This document shows positions 1,650 through 12,936 of a stretch of DNA of 64,000 bases, one piece after another. The translations under genes and the position numbers were made by a program. The stretch comes from Escherichia coli. GTDB lineage: Bacteria > Pseudomonadota > Gammaproteobacteria > Enterobacterales > Enterobacteriaceae. The stretch is taken from NCBI RefSeq assembly GCF_013315695.1, contig NZ_CP054353.1. One strand, written 5' to 3'. The notes under the pieces are model-generated. The model had not been told where the DNA came from. It searched no databases and saw nothing but the letters and a program-made list of their open reading frames with translations. The first letter of the stretch is position 1; the number at the start of each line of letters is the position of its first letter.

Positions 1650-4079
1650 GTGTCGTCGTTGCCCGTTGCTGCCGTCTTACCTGAGTTACTTGCTGCCCTC
1701 GATGGTGCATCGCAGGTGTTATTAAGTGCGCCGACCGGGGCCGGGAAATCAACCTGGCTGCCGCTGCAACTGCTGGCGCATTCAGCTATTCACGGGAAAA
1801 TCATTCTGCTGGAGCCGCGTCGTCTGGCGGCGCGTAACGTTGCGCAACGGCTGGCGGAGCTGCTTAACGAAAAGCCAGGCGATACCGTTGGCTACCGGAT
1901 GCGTGCGCAAAACTGCGTCGGGCCGAATACCCGCCTGGAAGTGGTTACCGAAGGCGTGCTGACGCGCATGATCCAGCGTGACCCGGAACTGAGCGGTGTT
2001 GGATTGGTGATCCTCGATGAGTTTCATGAGCGCAGTTTGCAGGCGGATTTGGCGTTGGCGCTGTTACTCGATGTGCAACAAGGTCTGCGTGATGACCTTA
2101 AACTGCTGATTATGTCGGCTACGCTGGACAACGACCGCTTGCAGCAAATGCTGCCAGAAGCGCCCGTCATCATCTCAGAAGGGCGCTCGTTTCCGGTTGA
2201 ACGCCGTTATTTACCACTGCCCACGCATCAGCGTTTTGACGAAGCCGTTGCGGTAGCCACCGCCGAAATGCTGCGTCAGGAAAGCGGATCATTACTGTTA
2301 TTTTTACCTGGCGTCGGAGAAATTCAGCGTGTGCAGGAACAACTGGCTTCGCGCATCGGCAGTGATGTGTTGCTCTGCCCGCTGTATGGCGCGTTGTCGC
2401 TGAACGATCAGCGAAAAGCGATCCTCCCGGCACCGCAAGGGATGCGCAAAGTGGTGCTGGCGACCAATATTGCTGAAACCAGTTTAACCATCGAAGGTAT
2501 TCGTCTGGTGGTGGATTGTGCTCAGGAACGTGTGGCGCGCTTTGATCCGCGCACGGGGCTAACGCGGCTGATTACTCAACGCGTTAGTCAGGCATCAATG
2601 ACGCAGCGTGCCGGGCGCGCCGGGCGTCTGGAGCCGGGGATCTGTTTACATTTAATCGCCAAAGAACAAGCAGAACGCGCCTCCGCGCAAAGTGAACCAG
2701 AAATATTACAAAGCGATCTCTCCGGTTTGCTGATGGAATTACTGCAATGGGGATGCAGCGATCCGGCGCAGATGAGCTGGCTGGATCAACCGCCAGCCGT
2801 GAATTTACAGGCCGCGAAACGCCTGTTGCGGATGCTGGGGGCGATGCACGGTGACCGGCTTAGTGCGCAAGGGCAAAAAATGGCGGCGCTGGGTAACGAT
2901 CCGCGTTTAGCGGCAATGCTGGTTAGCGCGAAGAACGACGACGAAGCTGCTACCGCGGCAAAAATTGCCGCCATTCTCGAAGAGCCGCCACGGATGGGCA
3001 ATAGTGACCTGGGCGTGGCGTTTTCGCGCAATCAACCCGCCTGGCAGCAACGTAGTCAGCAACTGTTAAAACGCTTAAACGTACGCGGCGGTGAGGCAGA
3101 CAGTTCGCTTATCGCGCCGCTACTTGCCAGAGCGTATGCCGATCGCATTGCTCGTCGCCGTGGGCAAGATGAACGCTATCAACTGGCGAACGGCATGGGG
3201 GCGATGCTCGATGCCGACGATGCGCTAAGCCGCCACGAATGGTTGATCGCACCGTTATTATTGCAGGGCAGCGCCTCGCCGGATGCGCGGATTTTACTGG
3301 CGCTACCGGTCGATATTGATGAGTTAGTACAACGCTGCCCGCAGCTGGTACAGCAATCGGACACCGTGGAGTGGGATGATGCGCAAGGTACGCTGAAAGC
3401 TTGGCGTCGGCTGCAAATCGGTCAGTTGACGGTAAAAGTGCAACCGCTGGCGAAACCCTCGGAAGACGAGTTGCATCAGGCGATGCTTAACGGCATTCGT
3501 GATAAAGGTTTAAGCGTGCTCAACTGGACGGCGGAAGCGGAACAGCTACGCTTGCGTTTGTTATGCGCCGCAAAGTGGTTGCCGGAATATGACTGGCCAG
3601 CGGTTGATGATGAGAGTTTGTTGGCGACGCTGGAAACGTGGCTACTGCCGCATATGACAGGCGTACATTCGCTACGCGGCTTGAAATCACTCGATATTTA
3701 TCAGGCACTGCGTGGATTACTTGATTGGGTAATGCAGCAACGTCTGGATAGTGAATTGCCTGCGCATTACACTGTGCCGACGGGAAGCCGGATCGCCATT
3801 CGTTATCATGAAGATAACCCGCCCGCGCTGGCGGTGAGAATGCAGGAGATGTTTGGCGAGGCCACCAATCCGACGATCGCCCAGGGGCGCGTGCCGCTGG
3901 TGCTGGAGTTACTTTCCCCTGCCCAAAGGCCGCTGCAAATCACGCGTGATTTGAGCGCCTTCTGGAAAGGAGCGTACCGTGAGGTGCAAAAAGAGATGAA
4001 AGGGCGTTATCCCAAACATGTCTGGCCGGACGACCCGGCAAACACCGCACCAACGCGACGAACGAAAAAGTATTCGTGA
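1650..4079 (+). CDS. hrpB: ATP-dependent RNA helicase HrpB (DEAH-box)
   Basis: Track ORF 1605-4079; start set to GTG giving VSSLPVAAVLPELL; Walker A APTGAGKST, DEFH box. Confidence 0.92.
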   Translation: MSSLPVAAVLPELLAALDGASQVLLSAPTGAGKSTWLPLQLLAHSAIHGKIILLEPRRLAARNVAQRLAELLNEKPGDTVGYRMRAQNCVGPNTRLEVVTEGVLTRMIQRDPELSGVGLVILDEFHERSLQADLALALLLDVQQGLRDDLKLLIMSATLDNDRLQQMLPEAPVIISEGRSFPVERRYLPLPTHQRFDEAVAVATAEMLRQESGSLLLFLPGVGEIQRVQEQLASRIGSDVLLCPLYGALSLNDQRKAILPAPQGMRKVVLATNIAETSLTIEGIRLVVDCAQERVARFDPRTGLTRLITQRVSQASMTQRAGRAGRLEPGICLHLIAKEQAERASAQSEPEILQSDLSGLLMELLQWGCSDPAQMSWLDQPPAVNLQAAKRLLRMLGAMHGDRLSAQGQKMAALGNDPRLAAMLVSAKNDDEAATAAKIAAILEEPPRMGNSDLGVAFSRNQPAWQQRSQQLLKRLNVRGGEADSSLIAPLLARAYADRIARRRGQDERYQLANGMGAMLDADDALSRHEWLIAPLLLQGSASPDARILLALPVDIDELVQRCPQLVQQSDTVEWDDAQGTLKAWRRLQIGQLTVKVQPLAKPSEDELHQAMLNGIRDKGLSVLNWTAEAEQLRLRLLCAAKWLPEYDWPAVDDESLLATLETWLLPHMTGVHSLRGLKSLDIYQALRGLLDWVMQQRLDSELPAHYTVPTGSRIAIRYHEDNPPALAVRMQEMFGEATNPTIAQGRVPLVLELLSPAQRPLQITRDLSAFWKGAYREVQKEMKGRYPKHVWPDDPANTAPTRRTKKYS

Positions 4080-4172
4080 AGATCAAAGTAAATTTGAGAG
4101 ATATCTTCTTCTGTCTTGCAACAGAAGAACAGAAAATCGGGCTTTTGCGCCTGAATATTGCGGAGAAAAAGC

Positions 4173-6707
4173 ATGGCCGGGAATGACCGCGAGCCAATTG
4201 GACGCAAAGGGAAACCGACGCGTCCGGTCAAACAAAAGGTAAGCCGTCGTCGTTACGAAGATGACGATGATTACGACGATTATGATGACTATGAGGATGA
4301 AGAACCGATGCCGCGCAAAGGTAAGGGCAAAGGCAAAGGGCGTAAGCCTCGTGGCAAACGCGGCTGGCTATGGCTGCTGCTAAAACTGGCTATCGTTTTT
4401 GCCGTGCTGATCGCCATTTACGGCGTTTATCTCGATCAAAAAATTCGCAGCCGTATTGATGGCAAGGTCTGGCAATTGCCCGCGGCAGTTTATGGTCGAA
4501 TGGTCAACCTTGAGCCAGACATGACCATCAGCAAGAACGAGATGGTGAAGCTGCTGGAGGCGACCCAGTATCGCCAGGTGTCGAAAATGACCCGTCCTGG
4601 TGAGTTTACCGTACAGGCCAACAGCATTGAGATGATCCGCCGTCCGTTTGATTTCCCGGACAGCAAAGAAGGGCAGGTGCGCGCGCGTCTGACCTTTGAT
4701 GGCGATCATCTGGCGACGATCGTCAATATGGAGAACAACCGTCAGTTCGGTTTCTTCCGTCTTGATCCGCGCCTGATCACTATGATCTCTTCACCAAACG
4801 GTGAGCAGCGTCTGTTTGTGCCGCGCAGTGGTTTCCCGGATTTGCTGGTGGATACTTTGCTGGCGACAGAAGACCGTCATTTCTACGAGCATGATGGGAT
4901 CAGTCTCTACTCAATCGGACGTGCGGTGCTGGCAAACCTGACTGCCGGACGCACGGTGCAGGGGGCGAGTACGCTGACGCAACAGTTGGTTAAAAACCTG
5001 TTCCTCTCCAGCGAGCGTTCTTACTGGCGTAAAGCGAACGAAGCCTACATGGCGCTGATCATGGACGCGCGTTACAGCAAAGACCGTATTCTTGAGCTGT
5101 ATATGAACGAGGTGTATCTCGGTCAGAGCGGCGACAACGAAATCCGCGGCTTCCCGCTGGCGAGCTTGTATTACTTTGGTCGCCCGGTAGAAGAGCTAAG
5201 CCTCGATCAGCAGGCGCTGTTAGTCGGTATGGTGAAAGGGGCGTCCATCTACAACCCGTGGCGTAACCCGAAACTGGCGCTGGAGCGACGTAATCTGGTG
5301 CTGCGTCTGCTGCAACAGCAACAGATTATTGATCAAGAACTCTATGACATGTTGAGTGCACGTCCGCTGGGTGTTCAGCCGCGCGGTGGGGTGATCTCTC
5401 CTCAGCCAGCCTTTATGCAACTGGTGCGTCAGGAGCTGCAGGCGAAATTAGGCGATAAGGTAAAAGATCTCTCCGGCGTGAAGATCTTCACTACCTTTGA
5501 CTCGGTGGCCCAGGACGCGGCAGAAAAAGCCGCCGTGGAAGGCATTCCGGCACTGAAAAAACAGCGTAAGTTGAGCGATCTTGAAACTGCGATTGTGGTT
5601 GTTGACCGCTTTAGCGGTGAAGTTCGTGCGATGGTCGGTGGTTCTGAGCCGCAGTTTGCGGGCTACAACCGTGCGATGCAGGCGCGTCGTTCGATTGGTT
5701 CCCTTGCAAAACCAGCGACTTATCTGACTGCCTTAAGCCAGCCGAAAATCTATCGCCTGAACACGTGGATTGCCGATGCGCCCATTGCGCTGCGTCAGCC
5801 GAATGGCCAGGTCTGGTCACCGCAGAACGATGACCGTCGTTATAGCGAAAGTGGCAGAGTGATGCTGGTGGATGCGTTGACCCGTTCGATGAACGTGCCG
5901 ACGGTGAATCTGGGGATGGCGCTGGGGCTGCCTGCGGTTACGGAGACCTGGATTAAACTGGGCGTACCGAAAGATCAGCTGCATCCGGTTCCGGCGATGC
6001 TGCTGGGGGCGTTGAACTTAACGCCAATCGAAGTGGCGCAGGCATTCCAGACTATCGCCAGCGGCGGTAACCGTGCACCGCTTTCTGCGCTGCGTTCGGT
6101 AATTGCGGAAGATGGCAAAGTGCTGTATCAGAGCTTCCCGCAGGCGGAACGCGCGGTTCCGGCGCAGGCGGCGTATCTGACACTATGGACCATGCAGCAG
6201 GTGGTACAACGCGGTACGGGGCGTCAGCTTGGGGCGAAATACCCGAACCTGCATCTGGCAGGGAAAACAGGAACTACCAACAATAACGTAGATACCTGGT
6301 TTGCGGGCATTGACGGCAGCACGGTGACCATCACCTGGGTAGGCCGTGATAACAACCAACCGACCAAACTGTATGGAGCCAGCGGGGCAATGTCGATTTA
6401 TCAGCGTTATCTGGCTAACCAGACGCCAACACCGCTGAATCTTGTTCCGCCAGAAGATATTGCAGATATGGGCGTGGACTACGACGGCAACTTTGTTTGC
6501 AGCGGTGGCATGCGTGTCTTGCCGGTCTGGACCAGCGATCCGCAATCGCTGTGCCAGCAGAGTGAGATGCAGCAGCAGCCGTCAGGCAATCCGTTTGATC
6601 AGTCTTCTCAGCCGCAGCAACAGCCGCAACAGCAACCTGCTCAGCAAGAGCAGAAAGACAGCGACGGTGTAGCCGGTTGGATCAAGGATATGTTTGGTAG
6701 TAATTAA
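4173..6707 (+). CDS. mrcB: Penicillin-binding protein 1B (bifunctional glycosyltransferase/transpeptidase)
   Basis: Track ORF 4158-6707; start trimmed to [14 protein letters not shown]; acidic/basic cytoplasmic tail, TM helix, GT and TP domains. Confidence 0.95.
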
Positions 6708-6926: not shown

Positions 6927-9185
6927 ATGGCGCGTTCCAAAACTGCTCAGCCAAAACACTCACTGCGTAAAATCGCAGTTGTAGTAGCCACAGCGGTTAG
7001 CGGCATGTCTGTTTATGCACAGGCAGCGGTTGAACCGAAAGAAGACACTATCACCGTTACCGCTGCACCTGCGCCGCAAGAAAGCGCATGGGGGCCGGCT
7101 GCAACTATTGCGGCGCGACAGTCTGCTACCGGCACTAAAACCGATACGCCGATTCAAAAAGTGCCACAGTCTATTTCTGTTGTGACCGCCGAAGAGATGG
7201 CGCTGCATCAGCCGAAGTCGGTAAAAGAAGCTCTTAGCTACACTCCTGGCGTTGCCGTGGGAACTCGTGGCGCATCCAACACTTACGATTACCTGATCAT
7301 CCGCGGATTCGCCGCTGACGGCCAAAGCCAGAACAACTATCTGAATGGCCTGAAGATGCAGGGCAACTTCTATAACGATGCAGTTATCGATCCGTATATG
7401 CTGGAGCGCGCTGAAATCATGCGTGGTCCGGTATCCGTGCTGTACGGGAAAAGCAGCCCTGGCGGCCTGTTGAACATGGTCAGCAAGCGCCCGACTACAG
7501 AACCGCTGAAAGAAATTCAGTTTAAAGCCGGTACTGACAGCCTGTTCCAGACTGGTTTTGACTTCAGTGATGCGCTGGATGATGACGGCGTTTACTCTTA
7601 TCGTCTGACTGGTATTGCGCGTTCAGCCAATGCTCAGCAGAAGGGGGCAGAAGAGCAGCGTTATGCTATTGCTCCAGCGTTCACCTGGCGCCCGGATGAT
7701 AAAACCAATTTCACTTTCCTTTCTTACTTCCAGAACGAACCGGAAACCGGTTATTACGGCTGGTTGCCGAAAGAGGGAACCGTTGAGCCGCTGCCGAACG
7801 GTAAGCGTCTGCCGACAGACTTTAATGAAGGGGCGAAGAACAACACCTATTCTCGTAATGAGAAGATGGTGGGCTACAGCTTCGATCACGAATTTAACGA
7901 CACCTTTACTGTGCGTCAGAACCTGCGCTTTGCGCAAAATAAAGTCTCGCAAAAGAGCGTATATGGCTACGGCATGTGCTCGGATCCGCTGTATACCAAA
8001 GACGACGATGCACTCAAGGCGAGTCCATGTTTAAGTATCCCGCAGTCAGAATGGAATCATACACTGACTCGTCAGTACGTTATCGATAATGAGAAATTAG
8101 AAAACTTCTCTGTTGATACTCAGTTGCAAAGTAAATTCGCAACCGGCTCGGTTGAACACACTCTGCTGACCGGCGTTGACTTTATGCGTATGCGTAATGA
8201 TATTGACTCCTGGTTCGGTTACGCCGGTTCCGTTGCACCGTCTGATATCTATAATTTAGACCGTAGTGACTTTGATTTTGGTGCTCACCCGGATCCGTCT
8301 GGCCCATACCGCGTTTTGCTTAAACAGAAACAAACCGGTCTGTATGTTCAGGATCAGGCGCAGTGGGATAAGGTGCTGGTGACTCTGGGTGGTCGCTATG
8401 ACTGGGCGGAACAGTCATCTTTCAACCGTGATTACGGTAATAAATCCGATCGTGATGACAAACAGTTCACCTGGCGTGGTGGCGTAAACTACCTGTTCGA
8501 CAACGGGGTAACGCCTTACTTCAGCTACAGTGAGTCGTTTGAGCCAGCATCTTTGACAGATGCAAACGGTGATCTGTTTGCACCTTCGAAAGGCAAACAG
8601 TATGAAGTTGGTGTGAAATATGTGCCGGAAGATCGCCCAATTGTGCTGACGGGCGCACTGTATCAGCTTACCAAAACCAACAACCTGATGGCGGATCCGA
8701 ATAATCCCAATTTCTCGATTGAAGGCGGTGAGATTCGCGCTCGTGGTGTAGAACTGGAAGCAAAAGCGGCGCTGTCGGCGAGTGTTAACGTAGTAGGTTC
8801 TTATACTTACACCGATGCGGAATACACCACCGACACTACCTATAAAGGCAATACGCCTGCACAGGTGCCAAAACACATGGCTTCGCTGTGGGCTGACTAT
8901 ACCTTCTTTGACGGTCCGCTTTCAGGTCTGACGCTGGGCACCGGTGGTCGTTATACTGGCTCCAGCTATGGTGATCCGGCTAACTCCTTTAAAGTGGGAA
9001 GTTATACGGTCGTGGATGCGTTAGTGCGTTATGATCTGGCGCGAGTCGGCATGGCTGGCTCCAACGTGGCGCTGCATGTCAACAACCTGTTCGATCGTGA
9101 ATACGTCGCCAGCTGCTTTAACACCTATGGCTGCTTCTGGGGCGCAGAACGTCAGGTCGTTGCAACCGCAACCTTCCGTTTCTAA
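6927..9185 (+). CDS. fhuA: Ferrichrome outer-membrane transporter FhuA (TonB-dependent receptor); loop-variant allele
   Basis: 752-aa ORF with signal peptide MARSKTAQPKHSLRKIAVVVATAVSGMSVYA, TonB box region, C-terminal ATFRF; internal loop segments differ from K-12 (see findings). Confidence 0.95.
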   Translation: MARSKTAQPKHSLRKIAVVVATAVSGMSVYAQAAVEPKEDTITVTAAPAPQESAWGPAATIAARQSATGTKTDTPIQKVPQSISVVTAEEMALHQPKSVKEALSYTPGVAVGTRGASNTYDYLIIRGFAADGQSQNNYLNGLKMQGNFYNDAVIDPYMLERAEIMRGPVSVLYGKSSPGGLLNMVSKRPTTEPLKEIQFKAGTDSLFQTGFDFSDALDDDGVYSYRLTGIARSANAQQKGAEEQRYAIAPAFTWRPDDKTNFTFLSYFQNEPETGYYGWLPKEGTVEPLPNGKRLPTDFNEGAKNNTYSRNEKMVGYSFDHEFNDTFTVRQNLRFAQNKVSQKSVYGYGMCSDPLYTKDDDALKASPCLSIPQSEWNHTLTRQYVIDNEKLENFSVDTQLQSKFATGSVEHTLLTGVDFMRMRNDIDSWFGYAGSVAPSDIYNLDRSDFDFGAHPDPSGPYRVLLKQKQTGLYVQDQAQWDKVLVTLGGRYDWAEQSSFNRDYGNKSDRDDKQFTWRGGVNYLFDNGVTPYFSYSESFEPASLTDANGDLFAPSKGKQYEVGVKYVPEDRPIVLTGALYQLTKTNNLMADPNNPNFSIEGGEIRARGVELEAKAALSASVNVVGSYTYTDAEYTTDTTYKGNTPAQVPKHMASLWADYTFFDGPLSGLTLGTGGRYTGSSYGDPANSFKVGSYTVVDALVRYDLARVGMAGSNVALHVNNLFDREYVASCFNTYGCFWGAERQVVATATFRF

Positions 9186-12902: not shown

Positions 12903-12908
12903 TAGGAT

Positions 12909-12929
12909 GCCTCGCCCGGTGGGCGAGGC
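12909..12929. terminator. Hairpin between convergent fhuB and hemL (GCCTCGCCC-ggt-GGGCGAGGC)
   Basis: 9-bp perfect inverted repeat in the 34-bp convergent spacer; no clean U-tract. Confidence 0.45.
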
Positions 12930-12936
12930 AAAATCA

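Follow-up and report, generated by a model that had tools for sequence, protein, structure and literature searches.

Does the fhuA gene in this 64,000-nucleotide stretch of Escherichia coli DNA (hereafter the window), whose product departs from the K-12 protein in several internal segments, encode a receptor of altered specificity, and how did those segments come to differ? We propose that it is very probably the intact fhuA of a long-standing allele family of the Enterobacteriaceae, a mosaic gene in which the loops have changed and ferrichrome uptake would be kept. The ends of the gene are those of ordinary E. coli (~98-100% identical to K-12), a ~900-bp tract from a deep lineage has been recombined into it, and smaller patches are nested at loops L4 and L8.

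Identity and genomic context of fhuA

The gene and its upstream region were delimited as follows.

6927..9185, plus strand: fhuA coding sequence for a 752-aa precursor, taken from the open reading frame list; E. coli MS 21-1 carries a fhuA with 100% nucleotide identity
6708..6926, plus strand: mrcB-fhuA intergenic region, which contains the fhuA promoter and, by pairwise alignment, is conserved relative to K-12

As originally predicted, this reading frame encodes a FhuA of 752 aa. It scores 1448 bits over aa 1-752 with the NCBIfam equivalog NF007465 ('ferrichrome porin FhuA'), whose cut-off is 803, while the next-best equivalog, FoxA, scores far under its own cut-off. Pfam identifies a Plug domain (aa 76-180) and a TonB_dep_Rec_b-barrel domain (aa 254-721), and the PDB FhuA chains (8A60/1BY3) match with E = 0 over aa 34-752. 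The domain layout is that of FhuA: a signal peptide (aa 1-33), a plug extending to ~aa 193, and a 22-strand barrel to aa 752. An identical protein is present in RefSeq as WP_000124395.1. The gene order mrcB-fhuACDB-hemL is syntenic with K-12, fhuA being the first gene of fhuACDB, and the upstream region differs from K-12 at 9 of 219 nt, seven of them within the first 62 nt and distant from the start codon. Antisense open reading frames within fhuA, such as that at 8415-8876 on the minus strand, are regarded as chance occurrences.

Mosaic structure of the coding sequence

Alignment with K-12 divides the gene into segments of very different divergence.

7934..8834, plus strand: central divergent recombination tract (aa ~337-636), comprising the strand 7 extension, L4-L8 and the intervening strands
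7232..7739, plus strand: second divergent tract, mostly synonymous, covering the plug and first barrel strands, found by sliding identity

Most of the nucleotide differences from K-12 (253 of 315) lie in one run at 7934-8900, becoming sparser after ~8785. Identity per 100 nt is 40-87% in the central tract and ~98% in the flanks. The breakpoints of the central tract are at 7934 and ~8834. The recombinant allele UID_H9 differs from that of the window at 251 positions inside 7934-8834 and at two elsewhere, and in the natural allele NZ_CM142667 a single base (7124) departs from the window sequence as far as 7933, beyond which the K-12 tract follows. The second tract is a run of 56 differences at 86-92% nucleotide identity (dS 0.55, dN/dS 0.04) with only eight conservative amino acid changes.

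Placement of the amino acid differences

The K-12 references were the PDB 8A60/1BY3 chains and MG1655 FhuA. Overall amino acid identity is 88%, with 90 differing alignment columns, and 82 of these fall within aa 337-610 (82 of 274 positions; the rest of the protein has 8 in 478; Fisher p = 8e-31). There is no difference in the signal peptide, the TonB-box region or aa 611-752, and aa 110-241 carry eight conservative substitutions, four of them in the plug. The original prediction had read the signal peptide, the plug and the C-terminal strands as K-12-like; the first and last are identical, while the plug is altered by these four substitutions. The span for which it had claimed divergence, 7890-8760, corresponds well to the central tract. 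Its K-12 L4 string (GYGVCSDPANAYSKQCAALAPADKGHYLARKYVVDDEKLQNF) is exact, and the K-12 alignment reproduces every segment quoted.

Loops and strands were mapped with AlphaFold2 on an alignment of 56 enterobacterial FhuA sequences. The model is of low confidence (mean pLDDT 48) with aa 1-323 unmodelled, and strand limits were taken from it solely for aa ~360-630, where they agree with the published limits of L5, L7 and L8. On this map and the K-12 alignment, 74 of the 82 central columns are extracellular, belonging to loops L4-L8 or outward strand extensions, in agreement with the earlier placement of the differences in external loops rather than membrane strands or plug. Within aa 322-620, loops L4, L5, L6, L7 and L8 account for 60 columns, and a further 14 belong to strands at a distance of more than 10 positions from a periplasmic turn; the other eight, in the membrane part or periplasmic turns, are all conservative (Fisher p = 3e-13).

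The loops considered individually are listed below.

7977..8060, plus strand: L4 tip (aa 351-378), between and just past the disulfide cysteines C351/C368, from the alignments
8217..8312, plus strand: L5 (aa 431-462), from the alignment, with strand limits from the model that match the published loop limits
8544..8585, plus strand: L7 (aa 540-553; K-12 mature 502-515), from the alignment
8694..8714, plus strand: L8 (aa 590-596; K-12 mature 552-558), from the alignment

An insertion within the disulfide loop makes L4 6 aa longer than in K-12, and K-12 Y325 is replaced by K. Its tip, KDDDALKASPCLSIPQSEWN, is the most divergent 100-nt bin of the gene, at 40% identity to K-12. In L5, 16 columns differ, a 1-aa deletion among them, and the loop is otherwise full length; L6 and L7 are of K-12 length. 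In L7, SSQVGKDGNI of K-12 is replaced by ASLTDANGDL, changing the EL7 tip residue D509 to N (EL7 limits from 10.1101/2022.06.28.497910). In L8, DPEGSFF is replaced by DPNNPNF, changing the EL8 tip residue F557 to N (L8 deletion limits D552-F558 from PMC10373560).

Relationship to published allele clusters

K-12 FhuA (P06971; PDB 1BY3, 2FCP, 8A60, 8A8C) belongs to cluster E1 of Wang et al. 2018 (10.1101/320069). Compared with it, the window protein has L4-L8 largely replaced, with a longer L4 and a shorter L5, and the named changes are Y325K, K344Q, D509N and F557N. That paper describes cluster E2 by an insertion in L4 (Indel 3), which is longer than that of E1/S1, an L5 (Indel 4) that is present, and an unelongated L6 and L7. 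The window FhuA has these lengths in all four loops, and so fits cluster E2 by this indel description.

The E2 examples used here, from ST131 strain ZH193, O145:H28 and FDAARGOS_1293, are 96-97% identical in amino acid sequence to the window FhuA. They share with it an L4/L5 family (CSDPLY...SPC...PQS.W.HTLTRQYVID; GYAGSVAPSDIYNLDR) and the same mosaic architecture. They differ at the loop tips. The L4 tip of FDAARGOS_1293 is KDQEALKASPCLSIPQSQWG, and that of ZH193 and O145:H28, SSNP-SSSPCANVPQSQWG, is 3 aa shorter than that of the window. In all of them L7 starts with Q, where the window has L, and the L8 tip is NGSLF, where the window has NNPNF; DNA identity across the tract is only 88.6-91.3%. 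The window allele is thus a sub-variant combining a long acidic L4 tip (KDDDALK), an L7 starting with L and the L8 tip NNPNF.

Mosaic evolution of fhuA, ompA, ompC, ompF and lamB in E. coli has been described previously (10.1101/2021.09.21.461324; 10.1101/2024.10.30.621157), with a scaffold conserved by purifying selection and highly variable loop apexes reshuffled by local recombination into few sequence types. The clusters and the indels at loop apexes reported there and by Wang et al. are those seen here. The window locus is an instance of this pattern and shows no substantive difference from it. As a catalogued RefSeq protein that fits a published cluster, the allele is already known and not unusual.

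Conservation of the ferrichrome site

R81, G99, Q100, F115, Y116, Y244, W246, Y313, Y315, F391 and F693, ferrichrome-site residues of the plug apices, L3, strands 7 and 9 and L11 that were reportedly described by Ferguson and by Locher in 1998, are the same as in K-12. Both FhuA disulfides are kept. K344 of K-12, which presumably lines the ligand pocket, is Q in the window allele, and this counts against full conservation of the site. F702 was dropped as a ligand-site residue since K-12 itself has alanine there. Y244 and W246 are confirmed as part of the ligand site, as are L3, L11, strand 7 and strand 9 (PMC10373560).

Strain CB7453 carries an allele with 14 nucleotide differences from that of the window and the same protein, and these synonymous-only differences point to purifying selection inside the allele class. 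TonB-dependent uptake of ferrichrome and albomycin should be kept by the window allele, because the barrel strands, plug and ferrichrome pocket are preserved by purifying selection.

Predicted phage and bacteriocin susceptibility

Four of the changes fall in residues or loops that have been linked to phage binding: Y325K (L4), D509N (EL7 tip), F557N (EL8 tip) and the replacement of PADKGH by QSEWNH. L8 matters for T5, phi80 and SO1-like phages, and L4 for T1 (PMC10373560). Judging from Y325K, D509N, F557N and the 6-aa extension of L4, a changed sensitivity to phages and bacteriocins is plausible. Loops that face outward and differ in both sequence and length would most likely alter the set of FhuA-dependent phages and bacteriocins able to bind. 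Some sensitivities may nevertheless be unchanged, since the interface between T5 pb5 and FhuA is large and tolerant. T5 binding withstands many changes in FhuA (10.1101/2022.09.22.509047); single-loop deletions other than that of L8 change T5 sensitivity only modestly, and the FhuA of S. bongori still supports T5 despite altered contact residues. A literature search on how natural FhuA allele families respond to phages yielded nothing specific to the cluster of the window allele.

More tentatively, the sub-variant might resist agents that depend on L8 or L4 of K-12 (T5, phi80, T1, SO1-like phages, possibly colicin M and microcin J25) with ferrichrome uptake kept. It would then represent a distinct specificity with phages of its own under frequency-dependent selection, its L4 patch currently moving between Escherichia species. 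We consider this extended reading possible but doubtful.

Distribution and maintenance of the allele

Of 5,426 complete E. coli genomes, 181 (3.3%) carry the central tract at 99% identity or more, SMS-3-5 among them. The L8 patch is unlike that of all other sampled alleles, the closest relatives included. A 131-nt query (8670-8800) finds at least 95% identity in the same number of genomes only, and the tip NNPNF occurs only in the 181 genomes with the window allele. A protein homologue search with the 291-aa tract returned almost exclusively partial proteins, and the search for a donor was made on genome contigs instead, using one genome per species. In that scan the same L4/L5 type was found in Escherichia sp. 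E1V33, Citrobacter, Kosakonia, Enterobacter vonholyi, Phytobacter and Atlantibacter, and the K-12 loop type in E. whittamii, Leclercia and S. enterica arizonae. Frequency-dependent selection by phages and bacteriocins is the likely cause of such coexisting loop types.

The families might instead be neutral relics, kept by drift and by hitch-hiking with clones, their loop differences having no consequence for phages or bacteriocins. Such a history would be in keeping with the tolerance of T5 binding and with dN/dS values below 1. Three loop families, however, extend across many genera, and neutral polymorphism is not expected to be so long-lived. Tract alleles within E. coli (88.6-91.3% nucleotide identity) are also slightly more diverged from each other than the window tract is from that of a sister species (92.8%), and among the altered residues are the loop tips in L8 and L4 that are experimentally important for the phages named above. 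We therefore consider neutral persistence unlikely.

Recent import of the tract into the E. coli lineage from another genus, for example Citrobacter or Salmonella, is less probable still. The loop type is common to Citrobacter, Kosakonia and others at 78-85% amino acid identity, and exchange among genera is proposed by Wang et al. (10.1101/320069). At the DNA level, though, no close donor was found outside Escherichia in the scan of one genome per species: the best non-Escherichia tracts reach 78% nucleotide identity, under the 84-88% that the same genomes show in fhuC and in the fhuA sequence on either side of the tract. The closest relative's tract belongs to another Escherichia species, at 92.8%, which equals its background divergence. 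The sole recent exchange detected is a short patch within the genus.

7917..8137, plus strand: L4 patch of 221 nt, with no difference from the fhuA of Escherichia sp. E1V33

This relative (NZ_RHJI01000003) also encodes a FhuA of 752 aa, with 98% amino acid identity to the window protein overall and 97% in the tract. It is unlike the window in showing 7% nucleotide divergence outside the L4 patch and in carrying the common E2 tips of L7 and L8 (QTDANGDL, NGSLF). Against such divergence in the remaining gene, the chance of zero differences over 221 nt is ~1e-7, and the patch is evidence for a recent exchange of L4 between Escherichia species.

Age of the central tract

Our preferred reading, of a long-standing allele family, is borne out by synonymous divergence. 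Against K-12, dS is 1.22 over the whole central tract and 0.01-0.10 in the flanks. The conserved membrane and periplasmic codons of the tract have dS 0.92 and dN/dS 0.04, and its loop codons dN/dS 0.20. Because dS is near saturation throughout the tract and low in the flanks, the central tract is an old diverged lineage that has been exchanged by homologous recombination, and the allele carries that lineage as an import.

Positive selection was sought by pairwise dN/dS. Whichever of the three alleles served for comparison, every site class gave a value below 1; this measure is insensitive at such divergence and ignores indels, and values below 1 give diversifying selection no positive support. 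The loop-focused divergence had originally been taken as a signature of receptor diversification, but read as local mutation this does not accord with the tract-wide dS or the loop dN/dS. Recent diversifying selection, in which phage pressure made a K-12-like fhuA accumulate point mutations specifically in its loop codons, is thus highly improbable despite the strong concentration of amino acid changes in loops and the listing of fhuA as positively selected in the genome scans of Chen 2006 and Petersen 2007, as reported by papers citing them, given a conserved-strand dS that fits very old lineages, the sharp tract breakpoints, a natural recombinant with the alternative tract and the presence of the same loop type in other genera.

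Implications

The locus reveals no new principle; it illustrates the published mosaic pattern cleanly. It makes two small additions: the frequency of the allele among complete genomes, and the evidence that an L4 patch has recently crossed between species. FhuA loop type is one determinant of the siphophages and bacteriocins able to attack an E. coli strain, so knowledge of the fhuA allele family aids the prediction of phage host range and the design of phage cocktails or siderophore-linked antibiotics.

The fhuA allele and its surroundings

The fhuA gene of the window encodes an intact product with the Plug and TonB-dependent barrel domain layout, which scores 1448 bits against the NCBIfam equivalog "ferrichrome porin FhuA" (cut-off 803). 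It lies between mrcB and fhuCDB-hemL, in the same order as in K-12, and the promoter-bearing intergenic region upstream is near-identical to that of K-12. The fhuA of E. coli MS 21-1 has 100% DNA identity to the window gene, its product being RefSeq WP_000124395.1.

6927-9185, + strand: fhuA, intact 752-codon ORF
7232-7739: first divergent tract, 86-92% nt identity to K-12, nearly all changes synonymous
7934 to ~8834: second (central) divergent tract, 40-87% identity to K-12 per 100 nt

Alignment with the solved K-12 FhuA chains and MG1655 fhuA revealed 90 differing columns (88% identity). None lies in aa 1-109, 242-336 or 611-752; eight, all conservative, lie in aa 110-241 (four of them in the plug), and the remaining 82 in aa 337-610 (Fisher p = 8e-31 for clustering). 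The fhuA flanks are ~98% DNA-identical to K-12. The original prediction had placed the substituted segments at 7890-8760, a good match to the second tract; all were recovered in these alignments, and the K-12 sequence it quoted proved exact. Its statement that the signal peptide, cork and C-terminal barrel read as in K-12 holds for aa 1-109 and 611-752, but fails at the four plug changes.

The convergent fhuB-hemL spacer (12903-12936) is 34 nt long and contains one GC-rich hairpin, GCCTCGCC-CGGT-GGGCGAGGC, as against 157 nt of REP/BIME-like palindromic units in K-12 (L001:13446-13602). In E. coli ZH193 (ST131; L005:1-1281), genes for a fimbrial usher and a fimbrial protein replace mrcB directly upstream of fhuA, so the mrcB-fhuA junction also varies in gene content. 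The window mrcB (4158-6707) begins at TTG 4158 in the ORF list, giving 849 aa, and is annotated as 844 aa in MS 21-1, whose record is identical; the discrepancy comes from ORF calling and is not real.

Position of the differences in the protein

An AlphaFold2 model based on 56 FhuA sequences from enterobacteria was of low quality as a whole (pLDDT 48) but fairly confident for aa ~360-630. Endriss and Braun reportedly placed L5 at about 394-419 in 2004, and the strand limits of the model agree with this. They also agree with the published limits (mature numbering) of L7, 502-515 (10.1101/2022.06.28.497910), and of the EL8 tip, 552-558 (PMC10373560). By these strand limits, 60 of the 82 differing columns of aa 337-610 fall in loops L4, L5, L6, L7 and L8 and 14 in outward extensions of strands. 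The other eight, such as V/I, V/L, I/L, D/E, N/Q and D/S, fall in periplasmic turns or the membrane-embedded part, defined as residues no more than 10 positions from a periplasmic turn. This extracellular-side concentration (odds ratio 10.8, p = 3e-13) bears out the prediction that the substitutions sit in external loops.

Relative to K-12, L4 carries six additional residues, inserted within the conserved C318-C329 disulfide loop, and L5 lacks one residue. The two disulfide pairs are kept, as are the ferrichrome-site residues R81, G99, Q100, F115, Y116, Y244, W246, Y313, Y315, F391 and F693; K344 is replaced by Q. Sites singled out by published structures and loop-deletion studies are altered: Y325 (L4) to K, D509 (EL7 tip) to N, F557 (EL8 tip) to N, and the L4 peptide PADKGH to QSEWNH.

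Origin of the central tract

Loop-focused divergence had been read as the signature of receptor diversification. The location in loops is real, but the tract is old: dS against K-12 is 1.22 over aa 322-620, and dN/dS in its loop codons is 0.20. Recent loop-focused mutation is contradicted, since dS reaches 0.92 even in membrane and periplasmic codons (dN/dS 0.04), as against 0.01-0.10 in the ends of the gene. The central tract is an old lineage under purifying selection, set in otherwise ordinary E. coli sequence, a pattern that marks homologous replacement. That the tract can be exchanged is shown by the natural allele NZ_CM142667, which matches the window up to 7933 save one base (7124) and then carries the K-12 tract to ~8834.

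The tract protein was also searched against one genome per bacterial species. Escherichia sp. E1V33 carries the window L4/L5 family at 97% aa identity, and Citrobacter, Kosakonia, Enterobacter vonholyi, Phytobacter, Lelliottia and Atlantibacter carry it at 78-85%. E. whittamii, Leclercia, several species of Enterobacter and Salmonella enterica arizonae have the K-12 family; the E. coli species representative, Superficieibacter and Pseudocitrobacter have a third, which lacks L4 and has longer L6 and L7. Recent import of the tract from another genus is argued against: none of these one-per-species genomes outside Escherichia gave a close DNA match, and the best of them reaches 78% nt in the tract, under its own 84-88% in the flanks.

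The fhuA mosaic, a product of homologous replacement, is nested. The closest E. coli relatives, FDAARGOS_1293, O145:H28 and ZH193 (96-97% aa), are ~93% identical over most of the tract and 88.6-91.3% over the whole. Identity falls to 82-83% in the L8 region against all three, and to 72% at the L4 tip against the shorter-L4 relatives O145:H28 and ZH193. E1V33 fhuA is ~93% identical to the window throughout, its background divergence, except for an identical 221-nt L4 stretch (7917-8137; L009:2501-2721 in E1V33). At 7% divergence the chance of 221 identical nt is ~1e-7, which suggests that the L4 patch recently passed from one Escherichia species to another. The tract at 7232-7739, covering the plug and first barrel strands, has a dS of 0.55 against K-12 with only the eight conservative changes. 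NZ_CM142667 has exactly this tract and the O145:H28 allele has part of it, which gives the 5' half of fhuA a recombination history of its own. CB7453 differs from the window by 14 nt and encodes an identical protein, consistent with purifying selection inside the allele class.

Frequency among E. coli genomes

Among 5,426 complete E. coli genomes, 181 (3.3%), including the reference strain SMS-3-5, carry the central tract at at least 99% identity; they come from humans, poultry, dog, wildlife and water, and the window L8 patch is limited to them. A further 266-267 carry it at 90-95% and 620-650 at 80-90%, while ~3,670-3,700 have the K-12-type tract. No megablast match to the tract was found in ~660 genomes. 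In a gene-wide search 563 genomes fell in the 60-80% band, whose representative is a 729-aa allele without L4; that class probably accounts for most of the tract-negative genomes. In 0H18 (NZ_CP081767.1 4030619-4034195) fhuA is broken by an ISAs1-family transposase, and in the laboratory strain Origami2-DE3 it is truncated. Three matches are located on plasmids, and two genomes have no fhuA match whatever.

Phage sensitivity and relation to known FhuA variation

L4 is needed by T1, and L8 by T5, phi80 and SO1-like phages (PMC10373560). By inducing movement of EL7 and EL8, Llp blocks T5 and makes cells resistant to phi80 and colicin M as well (PMC10373560; 10.1101/2022.06.28.497910). From this loop work, altered phage or bacteriocin sensitivity of the window allele is plausible, as originally proposed; a literature search for functional effects found no test of this allele. 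Sensitivity to T5 may stay unchanged, because pb5 contacts FhuA over a large, tolerant interface (10.1101/2022.09.22.509047). Overall, the observation is confirmed and its structural reading supported, the evolutionary reading needs correcting, and the functional reading is plausible.

Wang et al. 2018 (10.1101/320069) sorted E. coli FhuA into four clusters, K-12 falling in E1, which are distinguished by indels at the apexes of L3, L4, L5, L6, L7 and L10. E2 has an L4 insertion relative to E1; the window allele agrees with that description, an assignment by indel pattern. The authors report clusters common to several genera and fhuA trees in conflict with fhuB and species trees, attribute the pattern to recombination, and propose phage pressure as the driver. 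The group later extended it to mosaic evolution of outer-membrane protein genes (10.1101/2021.09.21.461324; 10.1101/2024.10.30.621157). The window allele, whose protein is already catalogued, is thus a known kind of variation and a textbook case of this published pattern.
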